Shown here piece by piece: positions 1 through 50,453 of a stretch of 64,000 bases of DNA. The translations under genes were made by a program, and so were the position numbers. The first letter of the stretch is position 1, and each line of letters opens with the position of its first letter. The stretch is from a virus (Duplodnaviria > Heunggongvirae > Uroviricota > Caudoviricetes), in the IMG/VR virus record IMGVR_UViG_3300017917_003727, one strand, 5' to 3'. Below the pieces are notes generated by a model. That model was not told the origin of the DNA, ran no database searches, and worked only from the letters and a program-made list of their open reading frames with translations.

Positions 1-182
1 TAATTAGTCAAAATGGTACTTTACCATGTAATACCGCGGTTGTAGATGCTTACATATCACTCTCAGTAGGATTTAACGGACCATCAATAAGTAATGGTTG
101 TTCAACTTTACAAGTTCTAACCCCACCAAATAATCAATCTTACAGTCAACTATATCAACCATATTACAATCAACAACAATAA
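1..182 (+). CDS. 3' end of a Ser/Thr/Asn/Gln-rich protein (partial; continues left of window)
   Basis: Frame 3 is open from the window edge to TAA at 180-182; composition resembles the following 734-aa protein. Confidence 0.35.
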   Translation, partial: ISQNGTLPCNTAVVDAYISLSVGFNGPSISNGCSTLQVLTPPNNQSYSQLYQPYYNQQQ

Positions 183-206
183 TTCACAATTCAATATTTA
201 TAAAAA

Positions 207-2411
207 ATGGCATATATAATTAAAGATACCACAGCACTTGTAAACACACAACTTACCGACGTAGGTAGAAGAAGAATATCTCAAGGTAACTTCAACATTG
301 CCTATTTTCAGTTGGGTGACAGTGAAGTATGTTATGATTGTATTAGTGGCTCCAATAGTTCACAACAACAAATAATAGTACCTGAATATAACTATCAAAA
401 CGATACTGGGGTACCACAAAGCAATAAAATGGGAATTAAATACCCAATATTTCTTTCAAGTTCAACAGGAGATACAAGTACTTTTGGAATACCTTTTCAA
501 GATTCACAAGTTGTACCAATATTTAATACACCAGAACCCAGAGGATTTTTCACTGGTTCTACAGGGGCTTTTTCAGCGTTTACATCATCAGCCTTAACCA
601 TAACCGCAAATTATACATTTAGTTTGTCTTCATTAACAAGTGGTAATACATTTATTATAAAAACAGGAAGTACTTGTGACGCAACAATTACTGCCACGCC
701 ACAAAATAATCAATTTGTTACATTATTTTTAGATAATGATGGTGGTTGCGGTCAAATTGATTATCCTTTCCCTGTACTTACATACAAAGTTGTAAATGTT
801 ACGGGAACTACCGTAACTGTTGATAGAGTTTTACCTGATTTTACTTCATTTACAGGAACGGGTAGAGCAATTTTCTATCCATCAGGTATGACACCATACT
901 ACGATAGTTACACACCAACCCCATATTATGATGGTGGAGTTTTTTCATTCGAACAAAACTGTGAAATACAACAACAAGATGTTAAAGTTTGGAATATGAA
1001 TCAACCTTGGACTGAAAATCCTGCGGGACTTTCACCCGATGTTTACAAAGGTTTTGAGGAATTTGGTTCTACTGCTTACACATCGACAAAACAATTCTTG
1101 GGATATCAAAGTAACTCAGGACAGACATTTCAAGACGTTAATTATAATTCAATAACTTCAGACACATTTTACTATAATTCATTCGGTGAAAAAATTTATG
1201 TACAACCAAATGAACAAAAAGTTATTTCATTAATTCACTATACAAATCAAGGAATTGATAATTTCTATGGTGAAAAATTTGCAACAGAACCATTTGATTT
1301 GGCTCAGTCGGGCGCGACTGGTCAGGCAAGAAATTTTAAATTAGAGGTACCAACTCTAATGTGGCACAAATCCAAAACAGGTGTAATTGGTGAAACATTT
1401 TACATAGACCCTGCTGGTTTTGACGATTTAAACTTGTTAAGTCCAAATTATATGATATCATCTAAAAATGATAACATGAACTTACCTGGTTTGAGATATT
1501 ATCATCTTTGGGATACACACGCAAATTTAGATGGTTATCCAAGTAGAGTAGGTAAAGTATTTCCTGATTTGAAAATGGTTGTTATTGATGATGAAGAATT
1601 GTGTGCGGCGATGTCATATAAATCCAATAGAAATTATACGTTACCCGCTCCAAGATTGGGATTAGTTGTTCCTAATACATTTAATCAAAACGTTTCAGCA
1701 ACAAGTGGTATATTGAGTGCTAATACTGAGGTAATGTATGTAACATATAGATTCCAAAACACTGGGTCAACAAACGGAATACATTGTAATTATTATTCAT
1801 CAATAAGTGGCTCAACTGTATCAGGACAAACAGATGACGTAATTGTTAGATTTGGTAATGAGTTTCCATTTTTGATAGAAGACATGGGTAATCAACCATC
1901 AGGATTTACATGTACAAATGTTAAATTGATTTGTCAAAAAGTTACCGATGGTACAAGACCTGACCCGACTTTGTGGAGAGAAATAGATGTAACTTCAGCA
2001 ATCACTGCAAACACTGGTTCAATAAACATTGGACCTATGGAAATAAGTGGTACAACCTTCCAAATAACCAAAAATTTATACGACAATGCAGGATATTATA
2101 GACTAGACCAAGTTGTTAATTTACCACTACTAAATTTGAATACAGGTATGACTTTTGGTGAAGAATATTTTTTCTATGGTACCTTAAAAACAGACGTTCA
2201 GGCGACTATCTACGAAATGAGGTATCTAATTAACTTAGCAACCAGTCAATATATTCGTTCATCCAATCCAACATGGAATTTAGGTAAAGATATGTATTTT
2301 TCTGAGGTCGGACTGTTCAATTCAGACAAAGAAATGTTGTTTGTTACAAAACTACAAAGTCCTGAAAAAAGACAGGGAGTCCAACAAATCGTCGTAAAAT
2401 ACGATTTTTAA
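207..2411 (+). CDS. Large hypothetical protein, Ser/Thr/Asn/Gly-rich; possible virion structural/adhesin-like protein
   Basis: 734-aa ORF with no catalytic motif recognised; low-complexity T/S/N-rich segments typical of fibre/structural proteins. Confidence 0.4.
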   Translation: MAYIIKDTTALVNTQLTDVGRRRISQGNFNIAYFQLGDSEVCYDCISGSNSSQQQIIVPEYNYQNDTGVPQSNKMGIKYPIFLSSSTGDTSTFGIPFQDSQVVPIFNTPEPRGFFTGSTGAFSAFTSSALTITANYTFSLSSLTSGNTFIIKTGSTCDATITATPQNNQFVTLFLDNDGGCGQIDYPFPVLTYKVVNVTGTTVTVDRVLPDFTSFTGTGRAIFYPSGMTPYYDSYTPTPYYDGGVFSFEQNCEIQQQDVKVWNMNQPWTENPAGLSPDVYKGFEEFGSTAYTSTKQFLGYQSNSGQTFQDVNYNSITSDTFYYNSFGEKIYVQPNEQKVISLIHYTNQGIDNFYGEKFATEPFDLAQSGATGQARNFKLEVPTLMWHKSKTGVIGETFYIDPAGFDDLNLLSPNYMISSKNDNMNLPGLRYYHLWDTHANLDGYPSRVGKVFPDLKMVVIDDEELCAAMSYKSNRNYTLPAPRLGLVVPNTFNQNVSATSGILSANTEVMYVTYRFQNTGSTNGIHCNYYSSISGSTVSGQTDDVIVRFGNEFPFLIEDMGNQPSGFTCTNVKLICQKVTDGTRPDPTLWREIDVTSAITANTGSINIGPMEISGTTFQITKNLYDNAGYYRLDQVVNLPLLNLNTGMTFGEEYFFYGTLKTDVQATIYEMRYLINLATSQYIRSSNPTWNLGKDMYFSEVGLFNSDKEMLFVTKLQSPEKRQGVQQIVVKYDF

Positions 2412-3312: not shown

Positions 3313-3918
3313 ATGGCTAAAAAACAAGATTTAAAAAATTCGCCCAAAGTTTTAGGATTAGACATTTCAACCAAAACCATAGGATGGGCGTTGTTTGACA
3401 TTCAATCGCACAAACTTTTAGAACTTACACATTTTTCCCCAATCATTAAACCACAACCTGAAGACAAGGTTGAAGAAATGATTTTAAAGGTTAACGCTTT
3501 TATAAAAAAACTTGAAGATTATAAAAATTTGGGAATATCCAAAATTATAATTGAGGAACCACTTTTAGGTTCTAATAATATCCATACAGTTGGAACACTT
3601 ATGAGATATAATGCAATGATTACCAAAGCAATATACGATGTATTGGGAATTGTGCCAAACTATATCTCAACATACAACTCAAGAAAATTTGCTTGGCCAA
3701 AATTAATGGGTAAGAATGATAAAAATCGTGAAACGCTTTTTGGAGGTTACCCCAAAGACATAGACAAAAAACAAGTGATTTGGGAATTTGTTTCTAAACA
3801 AGAACCACAAATTGTTTGGTTATATACTAAAAACATGACACTTAAGAAAGAGTGTTTTGACCAAGCGGATGCATATACCTGTGTTAGAGGGTATATGAAA
3901 ATGAATTCCTTTTGGTAA
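3313..3918 (+). CDS. RuvC-like Holliday junction resolvase
   Basis: N-terminal LGLDISTKTIGWALFD motif (RuvC/YqgF RNase-H-like fold) with downstream acidic residues (IIEEP, DQAD). Confidence 0.6.
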   Translation: MAKKQDLKNSPKVLGLDISTKTIGWALFDIQSHKLLELTHFSPIIKPQPEDKVEEMILKVNAFIKKLEDYKNLGISKIIIEEPLLGSNNIHTVGTLMRYNAMITKAIYDVLGIVPNYISTYNSRKFAWPKLMGKNDKNRETLFGGYPKDIDKKQVIWEFVSKQEPQIVWLYTKNMTLKKECFDQADAYTCVRGYMKMNSFW

Positions 3919-3953: not shown

Positions 3954-4877
3954 ATGGAAGATAATGCAATGTTAGTTGAACTACTCGAAGGAGTATTTGG
4001 TAAATACAAACTGCATTATCCATCCAAAGGACAGATTTCATTTGACTGTCCAGTATGTTCCTACGATATTAAAGGTCTTGATAAGACAGATGGAAAAGGA
4101 AACCTTGAAATCAATTATGCGGAGCACGTGTTCAAATGTTGGGCTTGTGGTGAGACACATAATACAAGAGGACATTTAGGTTATCTTATTGATAGGTACG
4201 GTAAGAAAAAAGAGAAAGAACTTTATGACTTGATTCGTCCCGACGAGTTTAAAAGAGTCGAAAAACAATACGAAAAGTTAAGATTACCCAAAGATTTCAG
4301 ACTTGCAACCGATGGTAGTATTTATCACATCCCATTCAGGGAGATGAGAAACTATCTTAAAAAACGTGGTGTAACCGATGAAATGATTACCAAGCATAAT
4401 ATTGGTTATTCTTTGGAAGGTGACTATGCTTTTAGGATTATAATACCATCATATGATGAGAACGGAAATTTAAATTATTATACGGGTCGTTCTTGGAATC
4501 CTAACACAAAGTCAAAATACAAAAACCCTGAGGCTGAAAAACAGATTGTAATTTTTAATGAAAGTTTGATTAATTGGAATGAAGATATACACATATGTGA
4601 GGGACCTTTTGATGCGCTTTTTCTAAACAACTCAATTGCACTTTTAGGTAAAAAGATGTCAGATGTGTTGTTTGAAACTTTATATGAAAAAGCAAAAAAA
4701 GACATCATAATTGTTTTGGACTCAGACGCTTGGGAAGACTCAAAAAAACTATACTTTAAACTGAGTGGGGGTAGATTATACGGAAGAATAAAAGTGGTAA
4801 AACTACCTGATGGTAAAGATATAGCAGACCTGAAAGGTGAGATATTACCCGAATACTTTATACAATTAGAAAAATAA
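3954..4877 (+). CDS. DNA primase (zinc-ribbon plus TOPRIM domain)
   Basis: CPVC...CWAC zinc ribbon N-terminally; TOPRIM-like ICEGPFDALF ... IVLDSDAWED acidic motifs C-terminally. Confidence 0.6.
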   Translation: MEDNAMLVELLEGVFGKYKLHYPSKGQISFDCPVCSYDIKGLDKTDGKGNLEINYAEHVFKCWACGETHNTRGHLGYLIDRYGKKKEKELYDLIRPDEFKRVEKQYEKLRLPKDFRLATDGSIYHIPFREMRNYLKKRGVTDEMITKHNIGYSLEGDYAFRIIIPSYDENGNLNYYTGRSWNPNTKSKYKNPEAEKQIVIFNESLINWNEDIHICEGPFDALFLNNSIALLGKKMSDVLFETLYEKAKKDIIIVLDSDAWEDSKKLYFKLSGGRLYGRIKVVKLPDGKDIADLKGEILPEYFIQLEK

Positions 4878-5662
4878 TGGACACAATTTTAGAATTAGCA
4901 AAATTTAATGAGGTAAAATATTTTGATGAACCACATAAGTACTATGCTCGTGGTAAAGAATATGTTTCAGCGACTACATTTATTGGTAAATTTAAACCAA
5001 AGTTTGAAACTCAAAGACTAGCAGAACAATATGCGGAAAGAAGAGGATTAAATGTTGATGATGTAATTGCCGACTGGGATTTAAAACGAGACATCTCAAC
5101 GGTAAAAGGTACTTTGGTACATAACATGGCGGAAAATTGGTGGAATAATAAAGCATTCCCTTATGACCCAACAATACCTGTAAAAAGTTTTGGTCACGAT
5201 ATTATAAAAGAAAAATATGAAAAGTGTGAACTACTTTTTAAAAAATTTTGGGCTGACGCATCGGAAAATTTAATTCCTGTTAAAATGGAATTAGTTGTTT
5301 GTGACCATGACTATGAGTTGGCGGGTATGGTTGACTGTTTGTTCTACAACAAAAAATCAGGAATGTTGGAAATTTGGGATTACAAAACCAACAAAGAAAT
5401 TAAAAAGAAAAATGATTATGGTCAAATGTTTAAAGACCCAATATCACATTTAGACGTTTGTGAGATTAATACATACTCACTCCAACTGTCTTTATATAAA
5501 CATATTATAGAAAAGAATACAAATCTTAATATTGGAAATTGTTATTTAATTTGGATAAATGAAAGTAGTGATAATTATAAGATATTCACTTGTAAGGATT
5601 TACAAGCGGAAATTAAACTAATGATTGAACACTATGAAAATAGCAAGAATAAGAAAGGGTAA
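4877..5662 (+). CDS. PD-(D/E)XK family nuclease (Cas4/RecB/YqaJ-like exonuclease)
   Basis: MVDCLF ... LEIWDYKT gives a D...E.K catalytic triad; N-terminal HKYY...G motif common in phage recombination exonucleases. Confidence 0.5.
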   Translation: MDTILELAKFNEVKYFDEPHKYYARGKEYVSATTFIGKFKPKFETQRLAEQYAERRGLNVDDVIADWDLKRDISTVKGTLVHNMAENWWNNKAFPYDPTIPVKSFGHDIIKEKYEKCELLFKKFWADASENLIPVKMELVVCDHDYELAGMVDCLFYNKKSGMLEIWDYKTNKEIKKKNDYGQMFKDPISHLDVCEINTYSLQLSLYKHIIEKNTNLNIGNCYLIWINESSDNYKIFTCKDLQAEIKLMIEHYENSKNKKG

Positions 5663-6001: not shown

Positions 6002-6773
6002 AATAGTACATTTTTCGGATTTACACATTCGTCTTTTTAAGGACCACGACTTGTATCGCGACATTTTACGCAGTATGTTGTCTCGATTTGAAGAGCTCAA
6101 ACCAGATAGAATTGTGTTTACAGGTGATTTGGTACACTCAAAGAATCAGATGACACCTGAACTAATTGAGATGGTGTCTTGGGTCTTAACGGAGTGTTCT
6201 AAGATTGCTAAAACCGTATTAATTATTGGTAATCACGACTTCTTAGAAAACAATGTGTCAAGATTGGATGCTTTAACACCAATTATTGATTCGTTACAAA
6301 ATGAAAATATTTATTACTACAAAAAAAGAGGTGTATATGCAGACGAAAACATTGATTGGGTGGTATACTCACTTTACGACCACAATATTACTCCCGAAAT
6401 TGATTCAAGTTCTAATAACCTTAAGATTGGGTTATTTCACGGTCCTGTTGTTGGACTTTCTACAGACGTGGGTTATAAATTTGAAGAGGGTTTTGATACA
6501 CATAGGTTCATGGGTTGCGACCTTGTTCTTTGTGGTGATATCCATAAGCGCCAAATCTTTGATATTCCCAATAAAAAGAAAGCTTACATGGTTGGTTCGA
6601 CGATTCAACAAAACTTTGGGGAAACAGTAACTAAACACGGATTTGGTGTTTACGATGTATCTAATGATAAGTATGAGTTTGTTGACTTGGAAAATCCAAA
6701 ACCATTTTTAGTATTCAAGATAGACGATTATTCTGTGATTGAAACAGGTAAAGAAAAACTAAAAAACTATTAA
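5991..6773 (+). CDS. SbcD/Mre11-like nuclease (calcineurin-like phosphoesterase; T4 gp47 analogue)
   Basis: HFSDLHI, TGDLVH and GNHD phosphoesterase motifs; ATG at 5991 overlaps the upstream stop; ORF-track start 5925 is probably too far upstream. Confidence 0.6.
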   Translation: MINKIVHFSDLHIRLFKDHDLYRDILRSMLSRFEELKPDRIVFTGDLVHSKNQMTPELIEMVSWVLTECSKIAKTVLIIGNHDFLENNVSRLDALTPIIDSLQNENIYYYKKRGVYADENIDWVVYSLYDHNITPEIDSSSNNLKIGLFHGPVVGLSTDVGYKFEEGFDTHRFMGCDLVLCGDIHKRQIFDIPNKKKAYMVGSTIQQNFGETVTKHGFGVYDVSNDKYEFVDLENPKPFLVFKIDDYSVIETGKEKLKNY

Positions 6774-6774
6774 A

Positions 6775-7446
6775 ATGTATTCTATTGAAATAAAAGATAA
6801 TAAAGATGTTTATGAGTATTGCCGACTGAACGGAATTACCGATATAAACAAATTCATTCAAGAGTGTTTCAAACAAGGATACGACATAAAAAAATATGGA
6901 TTAATAGGAAATACGGGCGGGATTGAAGAAAAACGGGTGGAAATTGAGGTAATTCGTGAAAAACGGGTAGAAGTACCAGTTGAAATAATTAAGGAAGTTG
7001 AAAAAATTGTTGAAGTTCCTATTGAGATAATTAAGGAAATCCCCGTTGATAAAGTTGTGGTTAAAGAAGTGGTAAAAGAAATACCTGTTGAAAAAATTGT
7101 TACAAAAATAGAATATATTAGTGACAATTCACAAGTTGAAGATTTACTTAAAAAGATTGAAGATTTAGAGTCAGATAAGAAAATATTTTCCACTAAGATA
7201 GAAGAATTAGAGGAAGAGAATAAAAAATTTTCCACTATAATCAAAGAAAAAGAAAATATTTTCCAAAATAATGATAAAACACAACAGTTACAAACAACAA
7301 TTCAAACACTAATGAGTAAGATTAGAGAAAAAGATAAAGAAATAACTGACTTAAAAGAACAGGTAAAAAATACAAGAACAAATGATGATGTAAAACCAGC
7401 GGTGTATTTACGTTCATCAAATTTAGGTGATAATTTATACAAATAA
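6775..7446 (+). CDS. Repeat-containing coiled-coil hypothetical protein
   Basis: Tandem peptide repeats (EKRVEIEV / VEVPVEIIKE / KKIFSTKIEEL); repeats also visible at DNA level. Confidence 0.45.
   Translation: MYSIEIKDNKDVYEYCRLNGITDINKFIQECFKQGYDIKKYGLIGNTGGIEEKRVEIEVIREKRVEVPVEIIKEVEKIVEVPIEIIKEIPVDKVVVKEVVKEIPVEKIVTKIEYISDNSQVEDLLKKIEDLESDKKIFSTKIEELEEENKKFSTIIKEKENIFQNNDKTQQLQTTIQTLMSKIREKDKEITDLKEQVKNTRTNDDVKPAVYLRSSNLGDNLYK
6927..7110 (+). repeat. Imperfect in-frame tandem repeats inside a CDS
   Basis: gaaaaacgggtRgaa and gttgaaataattaaggaa units repeated. Confidence 0.4.
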
Positions 7447-8020: not shown

Positions 8021-10345
8021 ATGTCTCACGATTTAGATGTAAGTAAACTTGAAAATCCATACATACAAGTTGTTTGGGAAGACACGGCCGAAAATTTTAC
8101 ACAGGAGCGTGTTAAGAGTGTACGCAGTTACTTTTCAAAAAAATATAATTCAACAAATGTAAATGTTTTAACTAAAGTTAAGACTACAGAGGATGTTCAA
8201 CAAACAGTTGATGTTTCCGTGAACATTATGGACCGAAATTATCAGTTGGAATTACTTAAAGAGTTATTAAAACAAAAAGGTCAAGAAAAACTTCATGAAG
8301 ATGTAATTAAGTTGGACAATATTGTAGAATCCAAATTATCATCCGAAGACATCCAAGCATTCAAAAAATGGTACATAAAGAAGATTGAATTTAGTAATTT
8401 TTTGTCATATGGAGAAAATCAAGTTTTAGATTTTGAGAAGTGTAATGGAATTAGTGTGATTGAATCCAACCCACCAAACTTTGGCGGTAAGACAGTACTA
8501 ACGGTAGACCTACTTTTATTTCTATTCTTCAATACAACTACCAAAACATCTAAAGCTGAGGAAATATTTAATAGATTTTCAGACAAAGACAAAGTGTCTG
8601 TAAGAGGAGAAATTAGTATTGATGGTGACGACTACATTTTAGTTAGACAAATAACACGAAAATTAGCTAAGTCAGGTGAATGGAATGTAAAAACAGAACT
8701 TGATTTTTTTAAGAAACTACCAACAGGTGAGTTACAAAACTTCACTGGTGAGCAACGTAGAGAAACAGAGGCTTTTATTAAGAATTCCATAGGAAACATG
8801 GATGACTTTTTGATGACTATTTTAACTACGGCTTCTAATCTTGAAGATTTATTAGAAGCAAAACCAACTGCAAGAGGACAGGTTCTATCAAGATTTTTGG
8901 GATTAGAATTTCTTAAAAGAAAAGAAGAAATAGGTAAAGAACTATATTCCATGTTTAGTAAGTCTATGATTTCAAACGTTTATAATACAGAGACGTTAAA
9001 AGAAAATATTCAAGAACTTATTAATAAAATTGATACTCACAAACAAGAAAACCAAACACTTGAGGACAACATTAAAGAATCTTTGGAGAAATTAGAAAAA
9101 GGTAAAAAGTTCAAAGAGGATTTATTGGCACAAAAATACACGGATATTGACCATGAATTATTAGTTTTAAATCCTAATTCTGTTAATGGAGAGGTCGAAC
9201 TAATTCGTCGTAAAATAAATGAGTTGAATTCTAACATCCAACAGGTTAAGGTTGTTGAACCTAAAGAATATTATCATGAGGACCAACACGATAAAGTTAA
9301 GGATAATGTCAATGAGGTATATAAACAAATAGTACAAATTGATACTGAGATTTCATCAATCAATAAACTAAAGTCTGAAGTTTCTGGTGGAATCAAGTGT
9401 GAACATTGTGGTATTGAACTTATGAACGCGGCAATTACCAACGCCAAAATTGCCGAACTTGATGGATTTATTCAACAAAAAGACCAAAAAACTAAGTTAA
9501 TGCAGGATTTAACCAGCAAAGAACAAGGTTTTACACAACTTAAGAGAGACTTTGACGAGTATGAGAAAAATAAGTTAATTAGAGAAAAATATGAACTTAG
9601 TCTTGAATCCGAAAACTTAAAATTAGAAAAAAACTTAGATAAATTAAAAAGATATCAAGACGTTCAAGAAAAGATTCAAAAGAACAAACTAATTGAAGAA
9701 AAATTAATTAAAGCGAATCTTCGTATCGATGAAATTGAACGTGAAAAAAATCAATACACTAACAAAATTTCATCTAACAACACAATGATTGGTAATTTTG
9801 AAAAAGAAATTGAATCAAAGAATGAAAAGATTTTAAAGATTGCGGAAGAGTTTGAAAAGGAAAAGGTCTACAAAACCTACTTAGAAATATTTGGAAAGAA
9901 TGGAATCTCAAAAATGATTATGAAAACTATGATGCCATTGATTAATGACGAATTACAAAGACTACTTCAAGACAGTGCATTCTTTAAATTAGAAGTTAGA
10001 ATCAGTGATAAAAATGAGGTTGAATTTGTTATGATAGATAATTCTACAGGTATTGAAAAATTGATGTCGAGTGGTTCAGGGTTTGAAAGAACAATAGCCT
10101 CTTTAGCGTTAAGGGCGGTATTATCCAAGATTTGTTCTTTACCAAAGCCAAATATAATTGTATTCGATGAGGTTTTTGGTAAAGTGTCAAACGACAATTT
10201 GGATATGGTTGGTGAATTTTTCACAAAGATTAAGGAATACTTTGAAAAAATATTTGTAATTACACATAACCCACTAGTGTCCAATTGGGCTAACAATATA
10301 GTTAGAATTACAAAGGTAGATAATATATCAAGAGTAAGTCAATAA
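8021..10345 (+). CDS. SbcC/Rad50-like ATPase (T4 gp46 analogue)
   Basis: Degenerate Walker A (NFGGKT), long coiled coil with CEHCG zinc hook, Walker B IIVFDEV, H-loop ITHN; paired with the SbcD-like gene; start could be 7964 (in frame). Confidence 0.55.
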   Translation: MSHDLDVSKLENPYIQVVWEDTAENFTQERVKSVRSYFSKKYNSTNVNVLTKVKTTEDVQQTVDVSVNIMDRNYQLELLKELLKQKGQEKLHEDVIKLDNIVESKLSSEDIQAFKKWYIKKIEFSNFLSYGENQVLDFEKCNGISVIESNPPNFGGKTVLTVDLLLFLFFNTTTKTSKAEEIFNRFSDKDKVSVRGEISIDGDDYILVRQITRKLAKSGEWNVKTELDFFKKLPTGELQNFTGEQRRETEAFIKNSIGNMDDFLMTILTTASNLEDLLEAKPTARGQVLSRFLGLEFLKRKEEIGKELYSMFSKSMISNVYNTETLKENIQELINKIDTHKQENQTLEDNIKESLEKLEKGKKFKEDLLAQKYTDIDHELLVLNPNSVNGEVELIRRKINELNSNIQQVKVVEPKEYYHEDQHDKVKDNVNEVYKQIVQIDTEISSINKLKSEVSGGIKCEHCGIELMNAAITNAKIAELDGFIQQKDQKTKLMQDLTSKEQGFTQLKRDFDEYEKNKLIREKYELSLESENLKLEKNLDKLKRYQDVQEKIQKNKLIEEKLIKANLRIDEIEREKNQYTNKISSNNTMIGNFEKEIESKNEKILKIAEEFEKEKVYKTYLEIFGKNGISKMIMKTMMPLINDELQRLLQDSAFFKLEVRISDKNEVEFVMIDNSTGIEKLMSSGSGFERTIASLALRAVLSKICSLPKPNIIVFDEVFGKVSNDNLDMVGEFFTKIKEYFEKIFVITHNPLVSNWANNIVRITKVDNISRVSQ

Positions 10346-10373: not shown

Positions 10374-10889
10374 TTATTTCATTTTTTCTTTTATTTTTTC
10401 TAATCTATCCTGAAGACTGTCACCATATATTAAATATAGTTTTTCTAAAACACCTTTTGGGTTCTTTCTCATGTATCTTAAAACATCGTTAGGTATGTCT
10501 TCACCATATTTACCAAACACAGTACCCAATTCATATTCACGTGGCATCTTCTTAACGTTCGGCTCAACAGTAAAATCTTCATCATCCATATCACCCTCTT
10601 GAACCATGTTAGGTTCATTTACCGTGTTCATCATAAAATCAAAAACTTGGTCCATATTATTTTTAGCCTCAGATATATGGTCAACAGCCCAATCATGTTG
10701 CTTTAAAATATTATCAACCATATTAGTATCTAATTCCATCAACATGGATGTTTGTCTGTTAATCTGTTCTAAATTACCAAAAAACATGTAGTTTTCTACA
10801 CCCATATCATTACCCTCATTCAATTTGGTTTTTTGAAGTTTTTTAACTAACTTTGCTAACTGAGATTCATTTACAATTATATTTCTCAT
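10374..10889 (-). CDS. Hypothetical protein
   Basis: 171-aa ORF on minus strand, convergent with the SbcC-like gene. Confidence 0.4.
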   Translation of the reverse strand: MRNIIVNESQLAKLVKKLQKTKLNEGNDMGVENYMFFGNLEQINRQTSMLMELDTNMVDNILKQHDWAVDHISEAKNNMDQVFDFMMNTVNEPNMVQEGDMDDEDFTVEPNVKKMPREYELGTVFGKYGEDIPNDVLRYMRKNPKGVLEKLYLIYGDSLQDRLEKIKEKMK

Positions 10890-10909
10890 AAAATAACTTT
10901 ACTATAAAT

Positions 10910-11449
10910 ATGAATAAACAAAGAAAAGAAACAGTAGGGACCAAGTATTTACTAATTGGTTTTGGGGATTTCAAAGGAAATCAGAAACTAATAACACAAT
11001 TATTCAATCAATTCACACCCATACTTTCATCTAGTTTCCTAAAATTTCATTTTGGTGATGATTATGTGATTGCTCATTTTGAAACAGAAGAAACTCAAAA
11101 AAACGTGAGAGAATTTTGTAATATGGTATTACAAAACACAATTTGTAATTTTATTTTACTTCCACACAATAAAAATGTCATGGTTTCGTTACCAAAAGAA
11201 CTTCAAGACTTTTTATTCAATTTAGACCAACAAGACCAAATAATTACTGACAATTTGTCTGATAATGTTGAGGAAGAAGACGAAAGAGATTTTATGGAAC
11301 AATTGTTGGAAAAATTAAATACACCAAAAACACAAGAAGAAACAAAATTGTCGCTCGACGAACTACTAGATAAAATTCAACAAAAAGGTATTGACCAACT
11401 AACACAGAAAGAAAAACAACAACTATATGACTATTCAAAAGGAATCTAA
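10910..11449 (+). CDS. Hypothetical protein with acidic C-terminus
   Basis: 179-aa ORF immediately upstream of and overlapping the sigma factor gene. Confidence 0.4.
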   Translation: MNKQRKETVGTKYLLIGFGDFKGNQKLITQLFNQFTPILSSSFLKFHFGDDYVIAHFETEETQKNVREFCNMVLQNTICNFILLPHNKNVMVSLPKELQDFLFNLDQQDQIITDNLSDNVEEEDERDFMEQLLEKLNTPKTQEETKLSLDELLDKIQQKGIDQLTQKEKQQLYDYSKGI

Positions 11450-12248
11450 AACAATCACCAAAAACACTGGCATTATTAATCAGGAAGAAATATCATCTTA
11501 TCTGAAAGACATTCGTAAACTAAAAGTTATGACTGTCGATAGAGAAAAAGAACTATCTGAAAAAATGTTATCAGGTACTTGTACTGAAAAAGAAAAACAA
11601 GAAATATATTCCGAGTTACTCGAAGGTAATTTACGTTTTGTAATCACAGTTGCAAAACAATACCAAAATCAGGGATTGGATTTACCTGATTTGATTGCTG
11701 AGGGTAATTTAGGATTGATGAAAGCAATTCATAATTTTGATTGGACCAAAAAACTTAGATTTATCTCCTACGCAGTTTGGTGGGTTAAACAATCAATTCT
11801 CCAATCTCTTAATGAGAACGCAAGAACTATTCGACTTCCCGTAAACGTAGTTCAAGAATTACACAGGGCAAAAAAAGAACTTGAAAAGGGTATTACAGAA
11901 CTTGATGATAAGTTTGCAATGTTACCAACAACGGTAAATTTAGAGTCTACAATAAATGAAGACGGTGACACTCTTTTAGACATGATTGAGAATCCAAACG
12001 CAATTATGCCTGATGAAGGATTGAATAGTCAAGACAAGTTGAAAGACAAACTATTATCCATCATGAACATATTGGATGATAGAGAGAAAGTCATTGTTGA
12101 AGATTATTTTGGTTTAACTGGTACACCAAGAACTTTGGAAGATATCGGTGAAGACTTCAATCTTACCAAAGAAAGAGTTAGACAAATTAAGGAAAAAGCA
12201 TTACGTAAACTACGTAACGAATCATCTACACTATTTGATTATTTATAA
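11427..12248 (+). CDS. RNA polymerase sigma-70 family factor
   Basis: Region 2 (DLIAEGNLGLMKAIHNFD ... FISYAVWWVKQSI) and region 4 (TLEDIGEDFNLTKERVRQIKEKALRKLR) signatures. Confidence 0.75.
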   Translation: MTIQKESKTITKNTGIINQEEISSYLKDIRKLKVMTVDREKELSEKMLSGTCTEKEKQEIYSELLEGNLRFVITVAKQYQNQGLDLPDLIAEGNLGLMKAIHNFDWTKKLRFISYAVWWVKQSILQSLNENARTIRLPVNVVQELHRAKKELEKGITELDDKFAMLPTTVNLESTINEDGDTLLDMIENPNAIMPDEGLNSQDKLKDKLLSIMNILDDREKVIVEDYFGLTGTPRTLEDIGEDFNLTKERVRQIKEKALRKLRNESSTLFDYL

Positions 12249-35967: not shown

Positions 35968-36756
35968 ATGGAAAATGTATCAGAAGTAGTTGCTGGATTA
36001 CAGGAACTTTTTAATCAAGTGAAATACTTTCACTGGCAAACTAAATCATTTGCTCAACACGAAGCATTCGGAAAAGTATTTGACTCTTTATCAGATTTAA
36101 TTGATGAATTTGTTGAAGTCTCAATGGGTAAATACGGTAGACCATCAACCAAAGGTCAAGAATTAGAGATGTTTGACCTAGAAGATGTAGATATAATGGA
36201 TTGGACTTCAGGTGTTGTTGATTACTTAATATCATTTGATGATATTTTAGATGATGTTGAAGATACTGACCTATTGAACATACGTGATGAAATGATGGCA
36301 CAATTTAATAAATTAAAATACCTATTAACGCTTAAGGAAAGTAAAAGAAAAAAAGTAATAAAACTTACTGAGGCTGATTTATATAGAATTGTTAAAAGAG
36401 TTATAACGGAAGAAAATGAAACTGCGAAAAAACAAATTGTTGGTAGTTTAATGTCAACAGATGGTCAATATGTTAATAGAGTAATAAAAAGTCTTGGACA
36501 AAATTTAAAAACAGAATTATTTAGAATTGTTTATGTTAGTGGTAAAGTAATTAGACAAAAGAACAAACAAATTGCATCTAGAGACATGTACATCGATAAA
36601 AACGAAAATTTTATATTTGTTCCTAAATCAAGTATTACCGTCGCTCTCTTCAAAAAGAAAACTGACCCAAAAAATCCTACAGATTATCCTACAGTACAAC
36701 TTAATTTTGGGGCTGACGAATCAGGTAAACTATACGTAGAAGGTGTTGGGGCATAA
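35968..36756 (+). CDS. Hypothetical protein
   Basis: 262-aa ORF. Confidence 0.4.
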   Translation: MENVSEVVAGLQELFNQVKYFHWQTKSFAQHEAFGKVFDSLSDLIDEFVEVSMGKYGRPSTKGQELEMFDLEDVDIMDWTSGVVDYLISFDDILDDVEDTDLLNIRDEMMAQFNKLKYLLTLKESKRKKVIKLTEADLYRIVKRVITEENETAKKQIVGSLMSTDGQYVNRVIKSLGQNLKTELFRIVYVSGKVIRQKNKQIASRDMYIDKNENFIFVPKSSITVALFKKKTDPKNPTDYPTVQLNFGADESGKLYVEGVGA

Positions 36757-38168
36757 TGGGAAAAACACTAATTAGGGAATCGGGAATTAGAGAAATTAAG
36801 GAACTAGCAAAAAGATATCCTAAAGCTAGAATATATTTTCACCAAGATTTGGATGGTGTTACCACCGCAATTGCAATGAAAAAATATCTTGAATCTAATG
36901 GTATCCAAGTTTCTGGTGTTGAAGTTATACAATATGGTGAAAGAGAATTTGCAATTAGTAAAGTAGATGCTGAAGGTGATACAATGCCAGTTTTAGTTGA
37001 TTTTGCACACGGTAAACCAATGTTCAAAATACATACCGACCACCATGATACTCAAGTAGGTGCTGGCGATACAAAGGCAACATCATTTAAAGAATCACCA
37101 TCAAACGTTAGAACAATTTCACAAGTATTATCACCACGTGATATATTCACAGATACCGATATTAATCTAATATCAACCGTAGACTCGGCTAAATTTAAGG
37201 GATTAAAACCTAAAGATATTATGAATTTTGTTTTCAGACTAGACAAAGAAGCTGGTTTGGAAAAAAACAAATTTGCTATGGGTTTAGTTGCTAACAAACT
37301 TCTTTTAGCGTATAAAAACAAAAAAGGTTTTTTGGAATACTTGGTTATGAATTCTGCACCATCCCTATATTCAATATTAAATAATATTAAAAAATACGCA
37401 CAGGAAAATAATCTATTATCTGTTGATGATATGATTAAAAACCAAGAAAAATATATTGAACAACAAAGAACCAGTGAAGACATAAAGTATGATGATGGTA
37501 TTATAGTACAATATGGTACGGGTTACTTAAGAACTGGTTCATATGATAGATACACACCATTTGAATTACACCCTGATGCTGACTTCTTGGTTATATCATA
37601 CCTCAATGGTATGGTTCAATCATCGTGTAACCCATTTAAAGAAAACAGGGCTTTACCTGGTATTAATTTAAAAAAAATCGCTGATGATGTATTGGAATCG
37701 GGAAGGTCTTGGTTTGAATCTAAGATTGTTCCTATCACAACAATTAAATGGGTTAGTGAAAGTGCTGCAGAAGCCGCGACTTCTGTTGGTTTTACTAGCA
37801 AAGATTTGGAAGCTTTTTATCCTCAAATTGTTACAAAAATTAAAAAAGCAGGTGAAAATGTTTGGGAAATATTTAGTAAGATTATGGACAAACCATATTC
37901 TTTATTAACTGAAAATGAATTAACAGTTTTAGATAGATTTGGGATACCACTTTGGGACATTATTAAAACTAACTCAGGTGGACACAGATGTATTACTAAT
38001 ATATCTGGTTTGAATTACTATGGTAGAGCAAGAAGAAGACCTGTGAAAACTTCATACAAGAGAGTAAAAGATGAAAATGATGAAGGTACTCCATATATTA
38101 GATTGATTAAAAATATACAACAACAATTTGCTGATAAGCTAAGAGAAGAAGTTAAATCGTCAACTTAA
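36756..38168 (+). CDS. DHH/DHHA1-family phosphoesterase (NrnA/RecJ-like)
   Basis: HQDLDG, HTDHHD and C-terminal SGGH motifs. Confidence 0.55.
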   Translation: MGKTLIRESGIREIKELAKRYPKARIYFHQDLDGVTTAIAMKKYLESNGIQVSGVEVIQYGEREFAISKVDAEGDTMPVLVDFAHGKPMFKIHTDHHDTQVGAGDTKATSFKESPSNVRTISQVLSPRDIFTDTDINLISTVDSAKFKGLKPKDIMNFVFRLDKEAGLEKNKFAMGLVANKLLLAYKNKKGFLEYLVMNSAPSLYSILNNIKKYAQENNLLSVDDMIKNQEKYIEQQRTSEDIKYDDGIIVQYGTGYLRTGSYDRYTPFELHPDADFLVISYLNGMVQSSCNPFKENRALPGINLKKIADDVLESGRSWFESKIVPITTIKWVSESAAEAATSVGFTSKDLEAFYPQIVTKIKKAGENVWEIFSKIMDKPYSLLTENELTVLDRFGIPLWDIIKTNSGGHRCITNISGLNYYGRARRRPVKTSYKRVKDENDEGTPYIRLIKNIQQQFADKLREEVKSST

Positions 38169-38505
38169 TATTCTGACCCTCTTCGATTCCACACTCATCA
38201 CAAGTACCTGCGGGTAATTCTAAAACATATTGACCTGAACCATTATAATGTTCACAAGGTTCAGTATTACAAGGTTGACAGTTTTTGTGAATCGAAGTTA
38301 TTTTTCTACTTGGGTCAACAAAAATAATATCCAAAGGTGTTATACAGTTTTTCATCCAAAAACTTTGTTCACCATTTTCAGGCATCATAAATAACATACC
38401 ATTAAAATCTTGGTTAAAATTTTGACCCATCATACCTTTTTGAATAGTCTCAGGTGTCATACAAACTCTAACTTTAAAGATATTATCATTTACTAGTACT
38501 CTCAT
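38152..38505 (-). CDS. DUF192-family protein with Cys-rich C-terminus
   Basis: GMLFMM...FWMKN...PLDIIFVD resembles the DUF192 (COG1430) core. Confidence 0.4.
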   Translation of the reverse strand: MRVLVNDNIFKVRVCMTPETIQKGMMGQNFNQDFNGMLFMMPENGEQSFWMKNCITPLDIIFVDPSRKITSIHKNCQPCNTEPCEHYNGSGQYVLELPAGTCDECGIEEGQNIKLTI

Positions 38506-38525
38506 ATTTATTATAAATATAATGT

Positions 38526-38915
38526 ATGAGTAAATACGCTGGTGTAATTGTTAGGTTTGAGAATAAATGTCTTTTGTGTAAAAGGTCACCACATAACGAC
38601 TTTTTACCAAATGTTTGGTCTATACCTTCAGGACACGTTGAAGAAGATGAAAGTGATATATCCGCAGCGGCAAGAGAGTTCTACGAGGAGACAGGATACA
38701 AAGCTAAAAACTTGAGATACATTTCAAAGATGGAAAGTGCTAATGGTAAAGGTGATGTTGCTCTTTTTTTAATGGACGTGAAAAAACCAATTTACCCTGA
38801 TTTAATGGAAGCTAAAGATGGTCATGAACACAGTGAATGTGATTATTTTTCACTTAAAACAATACCACGTACAACAAAGGAACTTAAAAAAGTTTTAGAA
38901 ATTTTGTTGACGTGA
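38526..38915 (+). CDS. NUDIX hydrolase
   Basis: Nudix box GHVEEDESDISAAAREFYEETG. Confidence 0.65.
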   Translation: MSKYAGVIVRFENKCLLCKRSPHNDFLPNVWSIPSGHVEEDESDISAAAREFYEETGYKAKNLRYISKMESANGKGDVALFLMDVKKPIYPDLMEAKDGHEHSECDYFSLKTIPRTTKELKKVLEILLT

Positions 38916-38992
38916 TTTGACTTTTCAAAAATAAAGCTATATTTATTTATCACAATCCCAAAAAGATTTCTTAAAAAAGTTTTCAGGGGGAC

Positions 38993-39023
38993 TTGACAAA
39001 ATCAAAATCCCGTCGTAACTTTG
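38993..39023 (+). promoter_or_regulatory. Promoter TTGACA-N17-TAACTTTG (best match of the conserved module)
   Basis: Perfect -35-like hexamer, 17-nt spacer, -7 box; no ORF downstream for ~1 kb. Confidence 0.55.
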
Positions 39024-39029
39024 TAATCC

Positions 39030-39977
39030 AATTAAGGGAAAATGTTCTTTAACTTATGAATATGTCCAACACAGGACAAAATATAATGGACCCCTCCATC
39101 TATTTCGTTCAGTGTTGATAACAGACATAATTCGGCGGTTTAGCGTCGATACAAGATAACCCCAGCAATGGGACTATAGGGGCGAGAGTTTCAACAGAAC
39201 GGGTAGCTCGGTGTCACGAAAGTGGCTCACAACTAAACAGATTACCTACGGGTAGGTCCTCATGGGCAACAGCTGAGAGGAAATATTCATTCTGACTACG
39301 TGAGGTGTCAGGATTGAGGTGGAGACACCAACAGGAAAAGGTAAAGGGAATGGTTCGACTCAGACGCCAATCTGATGTAGGGCTAGGTCGCCAGTTCATC
39401 ACAGGTATCCAAAGGGTAACCTACCGATATCAAGTTGAACCGTAGTCTTGGCGGATTACAGAAAGGTGAGTGGTATTTCCTTCTTCAAAAGAGAAGCTAG
39501 CCACCTCAGAGCTCATCTTTCATTACACTCACTATGTTGATTTAATTATGAAAAATTAAAACTACAGAAAAGGAAAAGTCTCTGAGCGGTTAAGCTGAAA
39601 GTCACCTAATTCCTCGAGTGGCGACACTAACGGGGAAATTGACAGGACCCCAAGTCCTTCAGTTTTGACTAAGAAAGTCCTAGTACCTGGGCACGGGTTT
39701 AGGGAGTCCGCAAGATTCCATAGAGACGAGTAAAAGTTGAGTAGGATTAACCGATACGAGTGATTGACGTAAACAATCGGTGATGACTCAATACAGATGG
39801 CAACATTTGTGGACAATGTGAAGAACCTCTAGTAAAGGATAATGTCACGAAAGATGGGTCAAGAATACGTGTAGTCTCAGCGTTTCAGCCTTACCACCCC
39901 TTGGATAGTATCTTTGGGCCGACTTCGAAGTTTCAAATGTACACCCCACGATAAACCAATTTCGTGGGGTTTTTTTA
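39030..39977 (+). ncRNA. Candidate large (~950 nt) structured non-coding RNA of unknown class
   Basis: ORF-free on the sense strand, GC ~50% in a 33% GC genome, consensus promoter and intrinsic terminator on the same strand; not recognised as rRNA, tmRNA, RNase P or group II intron by motif inspection. Confidence 0.5.
39944..39977 (+). terminator. Rho-independent terminator
   Basis: CCCCACGA-taaaccaatt-TCGTGGGG then T8. Confidence 0.65.
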
Positions 39978-39987
39978 TTTTATTATC

Positions 39988-40016
39988 TTGACAATGCGAT
40001 AAATAAGAAATATAAT
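39988..40016 (+). promoter_or_regulatory. Sigma-70-consensus-like promoter TTGACA-N17-TATAAT (followed by TAACTTAG)
   Basis: Exact hexamers at exact spacing, 50 nt upstream of the DGQHR gene. Confidence 0.4.
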
Positions 40017-40066
40017 TAACTTAGAAATTTAAAGACCGATTTTGATTGGTAAAAAAATAAATTAAA

Positions 40067-40924
40067 ATGCTTATGACACAATTAATAAATACTGAGGGGG
40101 CTATTGAGTCCCAGTTTAAAGTGGTTGGTCAAGTTTACGAAACTGACAATTATTCACTTTTTGGTTACATCAAAGGTAACCGCGAAATTAGTTCTTCGAA
40201 CCTAAAAAAAGTTACAGAATCACTAAAGAAAAGAAGAATCAAAGAAACTTCAATTCTTGTTGGTTATGTTCCTGATGACAAGGATGGAAAAATCTTCCAT
40301 ATTTTGGACGGACAACATAGATTTGAGTCCTGTAAAAAATTAGGATTACCTATCAGTTTTGTCGTATATGAGGATTATAATCCAAGTGATATGGATAAAT
40401 CTTTGGGTGTTATTGAACTATTAAACACAGCATCCAAAACTTGGGATGTTAGTAACTTTATGATTTCCAAGGCAATTATTGGAAACGTAAATTATCAAAG
40501 ATATGCGGAACTTTACAATAAGTACCCAATCGAACATGAAGTAATTTTCTACATCTTTGCTGAAATTACAAAAAAGAAAACCAACTTTAACGAGTTCAAA
40601 GAAGGAAAATTTGAACTAACTGAAGAACAAGCGAAAAAGATTGATGAAAAACTTAAGTTTTTGACTAATTTTTCCGCTAAAATAGCAAATAAATCAGGTA
40701 AAAGATATTACTACAAAGCTTTAATAGATGCTTCTATGTCCCCTAATTTATTGGTAGACCGACTTATCGAAAGATTCAACGATGAAAAATTTGACCCATC
40801 ACCTGTCACCAAAATATGTGAAGCTATCAAAATAATTCGTAAAAGATACAATGGTAGAGACAGTCATAAAATGGAACTGATAACTGGTAAACACGATAGA
40901 TTAAAACCAATATTTGTTGGTTAA
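40067..40924 (+). CDS. DGQHR-motif ParB-like domain protein (DndB-related fold)
   Basis: HILDGQHRFES motif in a ParB/Srx-like N-terminal domain. Confidence 0.5.
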   Translation: MLMTQLINTEGAIESQFKVVGQVYETDNYSLFGYIKGNREISSSNLKKVTESLKKRRIKETSILVGYVPDDKDGKIFHILDGQHRFESCKKLGLPISFVVYEDYNPSDMDKSLGVIELLNTASKTWDVSNFMISKAIIGNVNYQRYAELYNKYPIEHEVIFYIFAEITKKKTNFNEFKEGKFELTEEQAKKIDEKLKFLTNFSAKIANKSGKRYYYKALIDASMSPNLLVDRLIERFNDEKFDPSPVTKICEAIKIIRKRYNGRDSHKMELITGKHDRLKPIFVG

Positions 40925-40931
40925 AATAAAA

Positions 40932-40956
40932 CCCCTCACAAACGAGGGGTTTTTTA
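40932..40956 (+). terminator. Rho-independent terminator
   Basis: CCCCTC-acaaac-GAGGGG then T6. Confidence 0.6.
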
Positions 40957-40957
40957 T

Positions 40958-40988
40958 TTGGTAATATCAAAACTTTTTTATAACTTTG
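40958..40988 (+). promoter_or_regulatory. Promoter TTGGTA-N17-TAACTTTG, ATG 4 nt downstream
   Basis: Conserved module. Confidence 0.5.
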
Positions 40989-40992
40989 TATT

Positions 40993-41259
40993 ATGACTCA
41001 CTACCAACTCAATTTTGTACATCCTGTGTTAGGTGAATTGACATCTCCAACATTCACCGACCAAACACAATTCCGTATATTCTGTAAGATGGTTCAGGCT
41101 TCCTTGGCTTTGAAACAAGACCTTACAACCTATGACGCACAGGATTTGTTTATCCATATTCCTTACAAGGTATTGGTTGAATCTGTTGTTGTATCTAAAG
41201 TAAATGGGTTGAACTTGGCTGACTACGTAAAAGAAAAAGCAAAGATAGCTACTCAATAA
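40993..41259 (+). CDS. Hypothetical protein (leaderless-type start)
   Basis: 88-aa ORF. Confidence 0.4.
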   Translation: MTHYQLNFVHPVLGELTSPTFTDQTQFRIFCKMVQASLALKQDLTTYDAQDLFIHIPYKVLVESVVVSKVNGLNLADYVKEKAKIATQ

Positions 41260-49889: not shown

Positions 49890-49918
49890 TTGACAATAAA
49901 ATAAAAAAATACTATAAT
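49890..49918 (+). promoter_or_regulatory. Sigma-70-consensus-like promoter TTGACA-N17-TATAAT
   Basis: Exact hexamers and spacing, 10 nt upstream of the YceI gene. Confidence 0.45.
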
Positions 49919-49928
49919 TTAAACACTT

Positions 49929-50453
49929 ATGAAAAGAATGACAATTGACAACACCCACTCAGAGATTGGGTTTAAAGTAAGACATCTTATGATTTCAACA
50001 GTTAAAGGTAATTTTAATACTTTTTCTGGTGGAATACAAGAAGACGGAAACGTATTTGTATCCATAAACGTTGGTTCAATCAATACAGGTAACGTAGACC
50101 GAGATAATCATCTTAAGTCTGCCGATTTCTTCAACTCTGAAGAATACCCTACAATTAATTTTGGAGGTAAGATGAGTGAAGACATGTCTACTGTTACAGG
50201 TGAGATTACAATCAAAGGGATAACCAAAGAAGTTACACTTAACACCGAATATAACGGTATGGGTGTTGACCCTTGGGGAAACACAAAGCACGGATGGGAA
50301 ATTACAGGTTCAATCAACCGTAATGATTTTGGTCTTACATGGAACGCTCCACTTGAAACAGGTGGTGTATTGTTAAGTGAAGAAGTTAAACTTAGCATTG
50401 ACGTTCAGATGGTAGAAGTTGTGGAAGAAATGGCTGTAGAATCAGCTGAATAA
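49929..50453 (+). CDS. YceI-family protein (moron-like insert)
   Basis: YceI-like blocks (FKVRHLMISTVKGNF, SINTGNVDRDNHLKSADFF, RNDFGLTWN); own promoter and terminators on both sides. Confidence 0.6.
   Translation: MKRMTIDNTHSEIGFKVRHLMISTVKGNFNTFSGGIQEDGNVFVSINVGSINTGNVDRDNHLKSADFFNSEEYPTINFGGKMSEDMSTVTGEITIKGITKEVTLNTEYNGMGVDPWGNTKHGWEITGSINRNDFGLTWNAPLETGGVLLSEEVKLSIDVQMVEVVEEMAVESAE

Follow-up and report, generated by a model that had tools for sequence, protein, structure and literature searches.

A ParB-like gene that lies directly downstream of the giant RNA GOLLD in a 64,000-nucleotide stretch of Caudoviricetes DNA (IMG/VR virus record IMGVR_UViG_3300017917_003727; the whole stretch is referred to below as the window) appears to be a neighbour of that RNA by position rather than by function. 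In the reading that we favour, and to which we assign a probability of roughly 0.6, the product is a standalone ParB-CTPase-fold protein, an orphan from a very large phage family that is uncharacterised, the gene forms an accessory cassette with transcription of its own, lodged in a hypervariable slot, and the protein acts as a nucleoside triphosphate (NTP)-gated DNA-binding switch rather than in partition. The open reading frame (ORF) occupies positions 40067-40924 on the plus strand, begins with ATG, encodes 285 amino acids and contains the sequence HILDGQHRF, in which the DGQHR motif spans D81 to R85; a standalone DGQHR-motif ORF had been described here in an earlier note on this DNA, and it is present exactly as first claimed.

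The large RNA that the same note had placed immediately upstream is a full-length GOLLD RNA (RF02032; 299.4 bits against a gathering score of 150, E 1e-84). Its Rfam match ends 184 nt before the ParB-like ORF on the same strand, within a 1.15-kb non-coding gap (38916-40066), and the non-coding segment 38916-39460 probably holds the variable 5' domain of the RNA. GOLLD, a giant RNA of phages, assembles into a 14-mer cage made of RNA only; its function is unknown and no dedicated protein partner has been established (PMC12286853). The tight linkage had been taken as a possible sign of a functional RNA-protein pair, and the co-occurrence of the two elements was examined in both directions.

On the homologue side, we inspected the genomic context of loci L001-L012, and then L125 and L126, with flanks of up to 10 kb per side. 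GOLLD was found only at L002 and L003, where the protein is 57% identical to that of the window and the surroundings are fully syntenic with it from GlnA to orf258, and these loci therefore constitute one lineage with the window. The RNA was absent at L001, L004-L012, L125 and L126, which encode proteins of 36-49% identity in varied contexts, including phage contigs of 180-735 kb, and at three annotated loci of cultured phages (L042-L044). A scan of IMG/VR driven by the alignment provided 80 more homologue loci out of at least 427 relatives, and no GOLLD was detected in the 949 kb around them using an nhmmer GOLLD model that recovered every Rfam-verified GOLLD, including at loci outside its seeds. 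Overall, GOLLD was seen at none of 95 homologue loci outside the window and L002/L003.

On the GOLLD side, a conserved sequence pattern retrieved 29 viral stretches, of which 27 were scanned and 15 confirmed by Rfam, with 3 more added by nhmmer, while the same pattern applied to metagenomes led to 27 GOLLD-positive loci. Neither of two hidden Markov models of the ParB-like family detected the gene at any of 45 other GOLLD loci; in about 25 of these the sequence extends at least 1.2 kb downstream of GOLLD. One of the GOLLD loci, L175 (SXGQ01175889.1; GOLLD at 115-535, minus strand), gives the same nhmmer score as the window itself (336.5 bits) and may be the source of the window or derive from a near-identical phage; the contig ends 114 nt past the RNA, so the position of the ParB-like gene is cut off. 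Co-occurrence is thus confined to a single syntenic lineage, and outside it the gene and the RNA essentially never occur together in either direction.

Many GOLLD loci are syntenic with the window, in the order DUF5856, DHH-like, DUF192, NUDIX, (tRNA), GOLLD and orf88, and these make it possible to see what takes the place of the ParB-like gene. At L013, L028, L030 and L041 the orf88 homologue begins 60-80 nt past GOLLD with no gene between them. The closest relative without the ParB-like gene, L035, carries an unrelated 158-residue ORF at this point (11402-11878, minus strand) and L023 an unrelated 153-residue ORF (340-801, minus strand), neither of which has a Pfam match. At L040 the position (6086-7379, minus strand) is filled by a T5orf172/MUG113 gene and a 141-residue ORF with HNH-like Cys/His motifs and no Pfam match, and no orf88 homologue was detected downstream of GOLLD on this contig. 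Since the content between GOLLD and orf88 differs in this way among syntenic contigs, the position after the GOLLD terminator is a hypervariable accessory slot of which the ParB-like gene is one of several alternative occupants. The terminator itself recurs almost unchanged in L035, and it forms the left edge of the slot, because homology between the window and L035 stops right after it. In L002, a 39-nt direct repeat of the terminator hairpin (97% identity; 9877-9915 and 10860-10898) brackets the ParB-like gene, which suggests insertion or recombination at the GOLLD terminator, this being the footprint expected of such an event.

The slot occupant of the window has the parts expected of an autonomous unit (Table 1), and the cassette that we propose would run from a consensus promoter of host type through a short conserved leader and the ORF to a terminator of its own, set between the GOLLD terminator and orf88. 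The gene had been credited with promoters of its own, and we find one perfect consensus site; two perfect TTGACA-N17-TATAAT sites occur in the window against 0.17 expected, the other (49890-49918, plus strand) lying upstream of an ORF at 49929-50450. The gene is flanked by strong terminators, whose hairpins span 39943-39970 and 40928-40953. The leader between promoter and ORF measures 50 nt and includes the 11-mer TAGAAATTTAA, which has a single copy in the window and one in each of L002-L009, where it invariably stands a short distance upstream of the homologue, amid unrelated surrounding genes. The consensus, TAGAAATTWAA followed by a small hairpin, recurs upstream of homologues in unrelated contexts (L002, around 9960-9996; L004, 5621-5650; L006, 9949-9975; L008, 9951-9978; L125, around 3585-3610; L126, around 5245-5275). 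The hairpin is thermodynamically weak (-4.5 kcal/mol, z -1.3). Its stem varies by compensatory substitutions, pairing ACCGAT with ATTGGT in the window and L125, GTCGAT with ATTGAC in L002, GTCG with CGAC in L004-L008 and L047, and GTTGT with ACAAC in L126. These changes were read directly from the sequences and not from a formal covariation count, as MAFFT mis-registered two of the leaders. The hairpin is absent from relatives at 25-30% identity.

We considered whether TAGAAATTWAA could be a generic phage promoter and rejected this, given that the 64 kb contain a single copy, each homologue locus likewise contains one, and every copy stands at this gene. The conservation of the leader across unrelated loci shows that the ParB-like gene travels with its own regulatory region, be it an operator or an mRNA element.

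Other candidate control sequences are seen among the relatives. Contigs of jumbo phages carry a perfect 14-bp palindrome, AACGTGCGCACGTT, upstream of the homologues (around 5590-5605 in L004; about -79 from the ATG in L006, L007, L008 and L047), and the version at about -85 from the ATG in L126 is AATGTGCGCACATT, where two symmetric changes leave the palindrome intact; this element looks like an operator. Distant Flavobacterium-phage-like homologues (25-28% identity; L044, L061, L069, L076 and L106) have a different motif, approximately CCGAAAA-N10-AGAGTAGG, between about -60 and -25 from the ATG. A bolder proposal, on which we would place only an outside chance, is that the leader, and in the jumbo lineage also AACGTGCGCACGTT, is the loading or operator site of the protein itself, which would make the whole a module of promoter, operator, ParB gene and terminator that regulates itself, moves horizontally and inserts behind strong terminators, that of GOLLD being one example. 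More speculative still would be a variant, limited to the lineage of the window, in which the adjacent GOLLD locus or RNA has become a target of the co-opted protein.

Table 1. Coordinates and supporting evidence for the ParB-like cassette and its surroundings in the window.
Feature	Position	Strand	Evidence or remark
DHH-like / DUF192 / NUDIX block	36756..38915	mixed (DUF192 minus)	kept upstream of GOLLD in this phage group
DHH-like protein, 470 residues	36756..38168	+	21.6 bits (Pfam cut-off 28.1)
DUF192 protein	38152..38505	-	95.6 bits
NUDIX protein	38526..38915	+	66 bits
GOLLD RNA, conserved 3' domain (full Rfam model 1-416)	39461..39883	+	Rfam
Terminator of the GOLLD unit, left edge of the slot	39943..39975	+	hairpin with 9-bp stem and T-run, -16 kcal/mol, z -3.6
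Perfect sigma-70-type promoter of the ParB-like gene	39988..40016	+	12/12 TTGACA-N17-TATAAT
Leader element	40022..40050	+	TAGAAATTTAA (40022-40032) and hairpin ACCGAT-TTTG-ATTGGT (40035-40050)
Orphan ParB/sulfiredoxin-fold (ParB-CTPase-fold) protein, 285 residues (predicted)	40067..40924	+	phrog_12305 match, family alignment, AlphaFold2 model, structure comparisons
Intrinsic terminator of the ParB-like gene	40928..40962	+	10-bp stem and T-run, -15.4 kcal/mol, z -3.7
orf88, conserved gene, right edge of the variable slot	40993..41259	+	directly after GOLLD in syntenic phages without the ParB-like gene

Among 5.8 billion proteins searched there are 65 homologues, about 230-305 residues long (most 278-292) and 24-100% identical, and G82, Q83, H84, R85, N120, W126 and Y143 are invariant across 49 aligned homologues, from which it follows that the ORF is a genuine gene; G37-N38-R39 (GNR) is nearly invariant in the same alignment. 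The locus had no blastn match in 50,697 phage records, a scan of viral contigs with the single sequence confirmed nothing and an alignment-based scan was needed to find relatives, and a search of PDB sequences with the single protein returned only noise.

Profile comparisons connect the protein to the ParB/sulfiredoxin fold through phrog_12305 ('ParB-like partition protein' in PHROG; E 2.3e-19, residues 18-268 against profile positions 5-239 of 271). None of the Pfam and NCBIfam models that we tried reaches its threshold: GmrSD_N (PF03235) scores 14.5 bits against a cut-off of 33.2, parB_part (TIGR00180) 14.9 against 58.45, and SerK, the sole NCBIfam match at E 1e-3, 18.1 against 380 and over the core only, while PF02195, DndB (PF14072) and DGQHR (TIGR03187) give no match even at E<=10. 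A profile search of 1.84 billion cluster representatives (50% identity clusters) places 8,944 members in the family at E<=1e-3, of which 3,452 reach E<=1e-30; nearly all are standalone proteins of 235-290 residues whose match covers the full length. Of 48 diverse members, 31 are matched by parB_part and 19 by Noc, but only 2 by the DGQHR TIGRFAM; the Pfam matches in this set are all weak (GmrSD_N 14, ParB_N 7, DndB 1), and in a 49-member set the DndB model matches 2, with GmrSD_N weakly matching 13-14 of 48-49 members. Because parB_part and Noc models match far more members than do the DndB and DGQHR models, profile evidence places the family nearer to ParB, Noc and KorB than to DndB or DUF262, and the protein is, as judged from these profiles, a member of a distinct, very large, standalone ParB-CTPase-fold clade.

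Predicted structure agrees with this placement. A confident AlphaFold2 model (pLDDT 85), built from the family alignment, consists of an alpha/beta N-terminal core (about residues 20-108) that contains the GNR (37-39) and DGQHR (81-85) motifs, a helical region (109-262) and a basic C-terminal beta-hairpin. The top Foldseek matches in the PDB are Noc, ParB (from M. xanthus, B. subtilis and C. crescentus), pNOB8 ParB-N and KorB, in alignments of about 245 columns, while sulfiredoxin, SerK and SbnI cover only the core of about 90 residues. A viral structure library yields full-length matches (TM 0.66-0.77) to proteins of about 250 residues from uncultured phages, the top one being labelled 'ParB/Sulfiredoxin'. 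The N-terminal domain is thus predicted to adopt the ParB/sulfiredoxin fold. In a profile alignment to C. crescentus ParB, R39 of GNR falls on the box-I arginine (the 'R' of PRRTF) and DGQHR falls on AGERR, so both phosphate-binding arginines, R39 of box I and R85 of box II, are kept, and they are invariant or nearly so in the family; the catalytic Glu of AGERR aligns with the invariant Gln, Q83. The earlier suggestion of a ParB/sulfiredoxin-fold protein is therefore borne out by the phrog_12305 match, the predicted structure and the conserved arginines.

Proteins of this kind have recently been described: orphan ParB-CTPase-fold proteins are widespread on phages and can bind CTP, ATP or GTP, with a nucleotide specificity that is not reliably predictable from sequence or AlphaFold3 (Kaljevic et al., PNAS 2025; PMC12704722). 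The window protein shares with these orphans of phages and mobile elements the ParB N-terminal NTP-binding fold, both arginines, and a phage-borne position outside any parAB operon, but it has DGQHR rather than GERR as box II and lies below the Pfam PF02195 threshold. With a score under that threshold, the protein would be missed by a PF02195-based survey. KorB and Noc are ParB-family CTP-dependent DNA clamps with regulatory roles. Despite the structural resemblance, identity to them is only 11-17%, Gln replaces the catalytic Glu, no helix-turn-helix (HTH) or C-terminal dimerisation domain is recognised by sequence in the ParB-like protein, and it has no KorA-like or membrane-targeting partner or known binding site. 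The DUF262/GmrSD_N NTPase domain is found in GmrSD, BrxU, SspE and DndI; the window protein has the related DGQ(Q/H)R motif and the weak, sub-threshold GmrSD_N match given above, but differs from enzymes of this type, which combine an above-threshold PF03235 match with a C-terminal DUF1524/HNH nuclease.

Taken with the cassette, these features suggest how the protein may work. The N-terminal domain would bind an NTP through R39 of box I and R85 of the box-II DGQHR, binding would gate a conformational switch in a DNA-binding protein, and the switch would operate on phage or host DNA at an early stage of infection, much as ParB regulators of the KorB/Noc type do. We consider an NTP-gated DNA-binding switch expressed early to be the most likely role. 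Among 64 family lineages (80% identity), genes of replication and recombination recur as neighbours, namely YqaJ exonuclease (12 lineages, directly adjacent), ERF (13), DUF6291/Phg_2220_C (17), a DnaA_C HTH protein (11), DnaB-type helicases and NinG, and the relatives in Streptococcus Javan prophage and Flavobacterium phage lillamy lie between lysogeny or early genes and replication genes.

Several other readings have to be weighed against this one. That the ParB-like protein binds, processes or regulates GOLLD RNA, or loads on GOLLD DNA, could be argued from the same-strand adjacency and its retention in L002 and L003 at 57% protein identity. However, those two loci belong to the one syntenic lineage, the RNA is lacking near the other 12 context loci as well as the 3 cultured-phage and 80 viral ones, and the gene is missing from all 45 other GOLLD loci, including syntenic ones in which the slot is empty or otherwise occupied. 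In addition, a terminator and a separate promoter intervene, and the GOLLD cage, whose partners are unknown, assembles from RNA alone (PMC12286853). We regard a functional pair as highly improbable and largely refuted already. A ParB-fold nuclease, an NTP-consuming effector or a counter-defence protein, which would attack host DNA or deplete nucleotides or signals, is unlikely in our estimation. The counter-defence role raised in the earlier note gains no positive evidence here. PADLOC has no match for the ParB-like protein, nor for the products of orf88 and of the DHH-like and DUF192 genes, and we identified neither a nuclease domain nor a metal-site motif. Over its whole length the family keeps the arrangement of a ParB-N core followed by a helical domain, and it is found in replication modules, not in anti-defence islands.

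DndB is a DGQHR-domain regulator of phosphorothioation, and the earlier note had drawn a comparison with it. The literal DGQHR motif and the ParB/sulfiredoxin fold are indeed common to both, and a role as an accessory that regulates or activates a phage DNA-modifying enzyme could also be argued from the N6/N4 DNA methyltransferase 4 kb upstream, the D12 methyltransferase elsewhere in the window, the C5-methyltransferases within 4 kb in 8 of the 64 family lineages and the methyltransferase two genes upstream in lillamy. A further precedent is provided by phage ParB homologues that lack a DNA-binding domain, lie beside their cognate T-dioxygenases and activate them (PMC13229309); like these 5mYOX-associated activators, the window protein is a phage-encoded ParB fold without ParA. 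The affinity to DndB nevertheless fails at the profile level, since neither PF14072 nor TIGR03187 has a match in this protein, and among 48-49 family members these models reach no more than 1-2. No dndCDE genes were found within 6 kb on either side, and neither dnd nor TET/JBP dioxygenase genes among the near neighbours or the 25 of 33 window families listed. No modification enzyme is consistently adjacent and the slot insertion shows that the gene moves alone, all of which leads us to view a modification accessory as quite unlikely. A small-molecule or protein kinase of the SerK, SbnI or sulfiredoxin type is very unlikely. While the best PDB sequence-profile matches are SbnI (E 2e-4 to 3e-5, about 55 residues aligned) and sulfiredoxin, and SerK supplies the only NCBIfam match, these matches span just the core of some 50-90 residues, none is a full-length profile match, SerK reaches 18 bits against 380, and ParB and Noc models match far more family members. 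Least credible of all is a classical partition ParB of a ParABS system, to which we give next to no chance. The fold is of ParB type and parB_part matches weakly, but TIGR00180 stays far below its cut-off, no ParA was found among the near neighbours (orf88 and orf245 come next) or at the homologue loci examined, the ParA-binding motif (L/F/I)G(K/R)G(L/F/I) is absent from the protein, and the window has no over-represented 12-16-bp palindromes that could serve as parS, the leader hairpin sequence being unique there. The gene sits in a large phage genome, with related contigs of up to 295 kb, in which neither ParA nor any other gene of plasmid maintenance was seen. The earlier note had named an ordinary plasmid-partition ParB with a cognate parS as the finding that would overturn its view; with no ParA at the loci examined, no ParA-binding motif and no repeated palindromes in the window, the ParB-like protein is almost certainly not a partition ParB.

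The surroundings of GOLLD are more stable than the slot. Of the NUDIX, DUF192 and DHH neighbourhood that had been reported, the first two are confirmed, while the DHH-like protein falls below its Pfam cut-off; further upstream of the ParB-like gene lie DUF5856 and the methyltransferase mentioned above. The block from DUF5856 through the DHH-like, DUF192 (minus strand) and NUDIX genes to GOLLD and orf88 (35968-41259 in the window) is conserved at 32-57% protein identity in L013, L015, L017, L022, L023, L028, L030, L040 and L041, which form one phage group with contigs of up to 295 kb, and is absent at the GOLLD loci of other lineages (L019, L021, L024, L027 and L036). Within the group, orf88 and NUDIX are steadier neighbours of GOLLD than is the ParB-like gene, an association in which shared ancestry is not separated from function. 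ARAGORN detects no tRNA gene in the window, and none is seen in L002/L003, while a tRNA lies about 400-1,100 nt upstream of GOLLD in most relatives (L013, L015, L023, L028, L030 and L041). For the NUDIX protein, PADLOC gives a match to its candidate defence model PDC-S07 (E 8e-12). On the jumbo-phage contig L008, a gene at 4191-4757 (plus strand), about 5 kb upstream of the ParB-like homologue, has a weak Pfam match to Acb1, an anti-CBASS phosphodiesterase. Elsewhere, the window encodes auxiliary functions that include a TonB-dependent receptor/Plug/OMP beta-barrel, DnaJ, a sigma-70-family factor, RNA ligase, a GlnA-like protein, a PaaA_PaaC-like protein, YceI, thioredoxin/glutaredoxin and a class II tRNA-synthetase domain. 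Taken with a lack of Shine-Dalgarno sequences, the receptor genes hint at a host of Bacteroidota type.

A genuine dedicated protein partner of GOLLD would have been an important lead, and our analysis removes the ParB-like protein as a candidate for that role; what it identifies is a hotspot of accessory-gene turnover right after the GOLLD terminator. Orphan ParB-CTPase-fold proteins of phages are a kind already known. Our literature searches turned up no experimental study of a member of this family or of an early-gene ParB-like phage protein. Members from cultured phages do exist, among them Enterococcus EFDG1 gp147, those of Streptococcus Javan prophages and Flavobacterium phage lillamy gp038. 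The analysis also flags a very large family of standalone phage ParB-fold proteins (about 9,000 clusters at 50% identity) that lies below current Pfam and NCBIfam thresholds.
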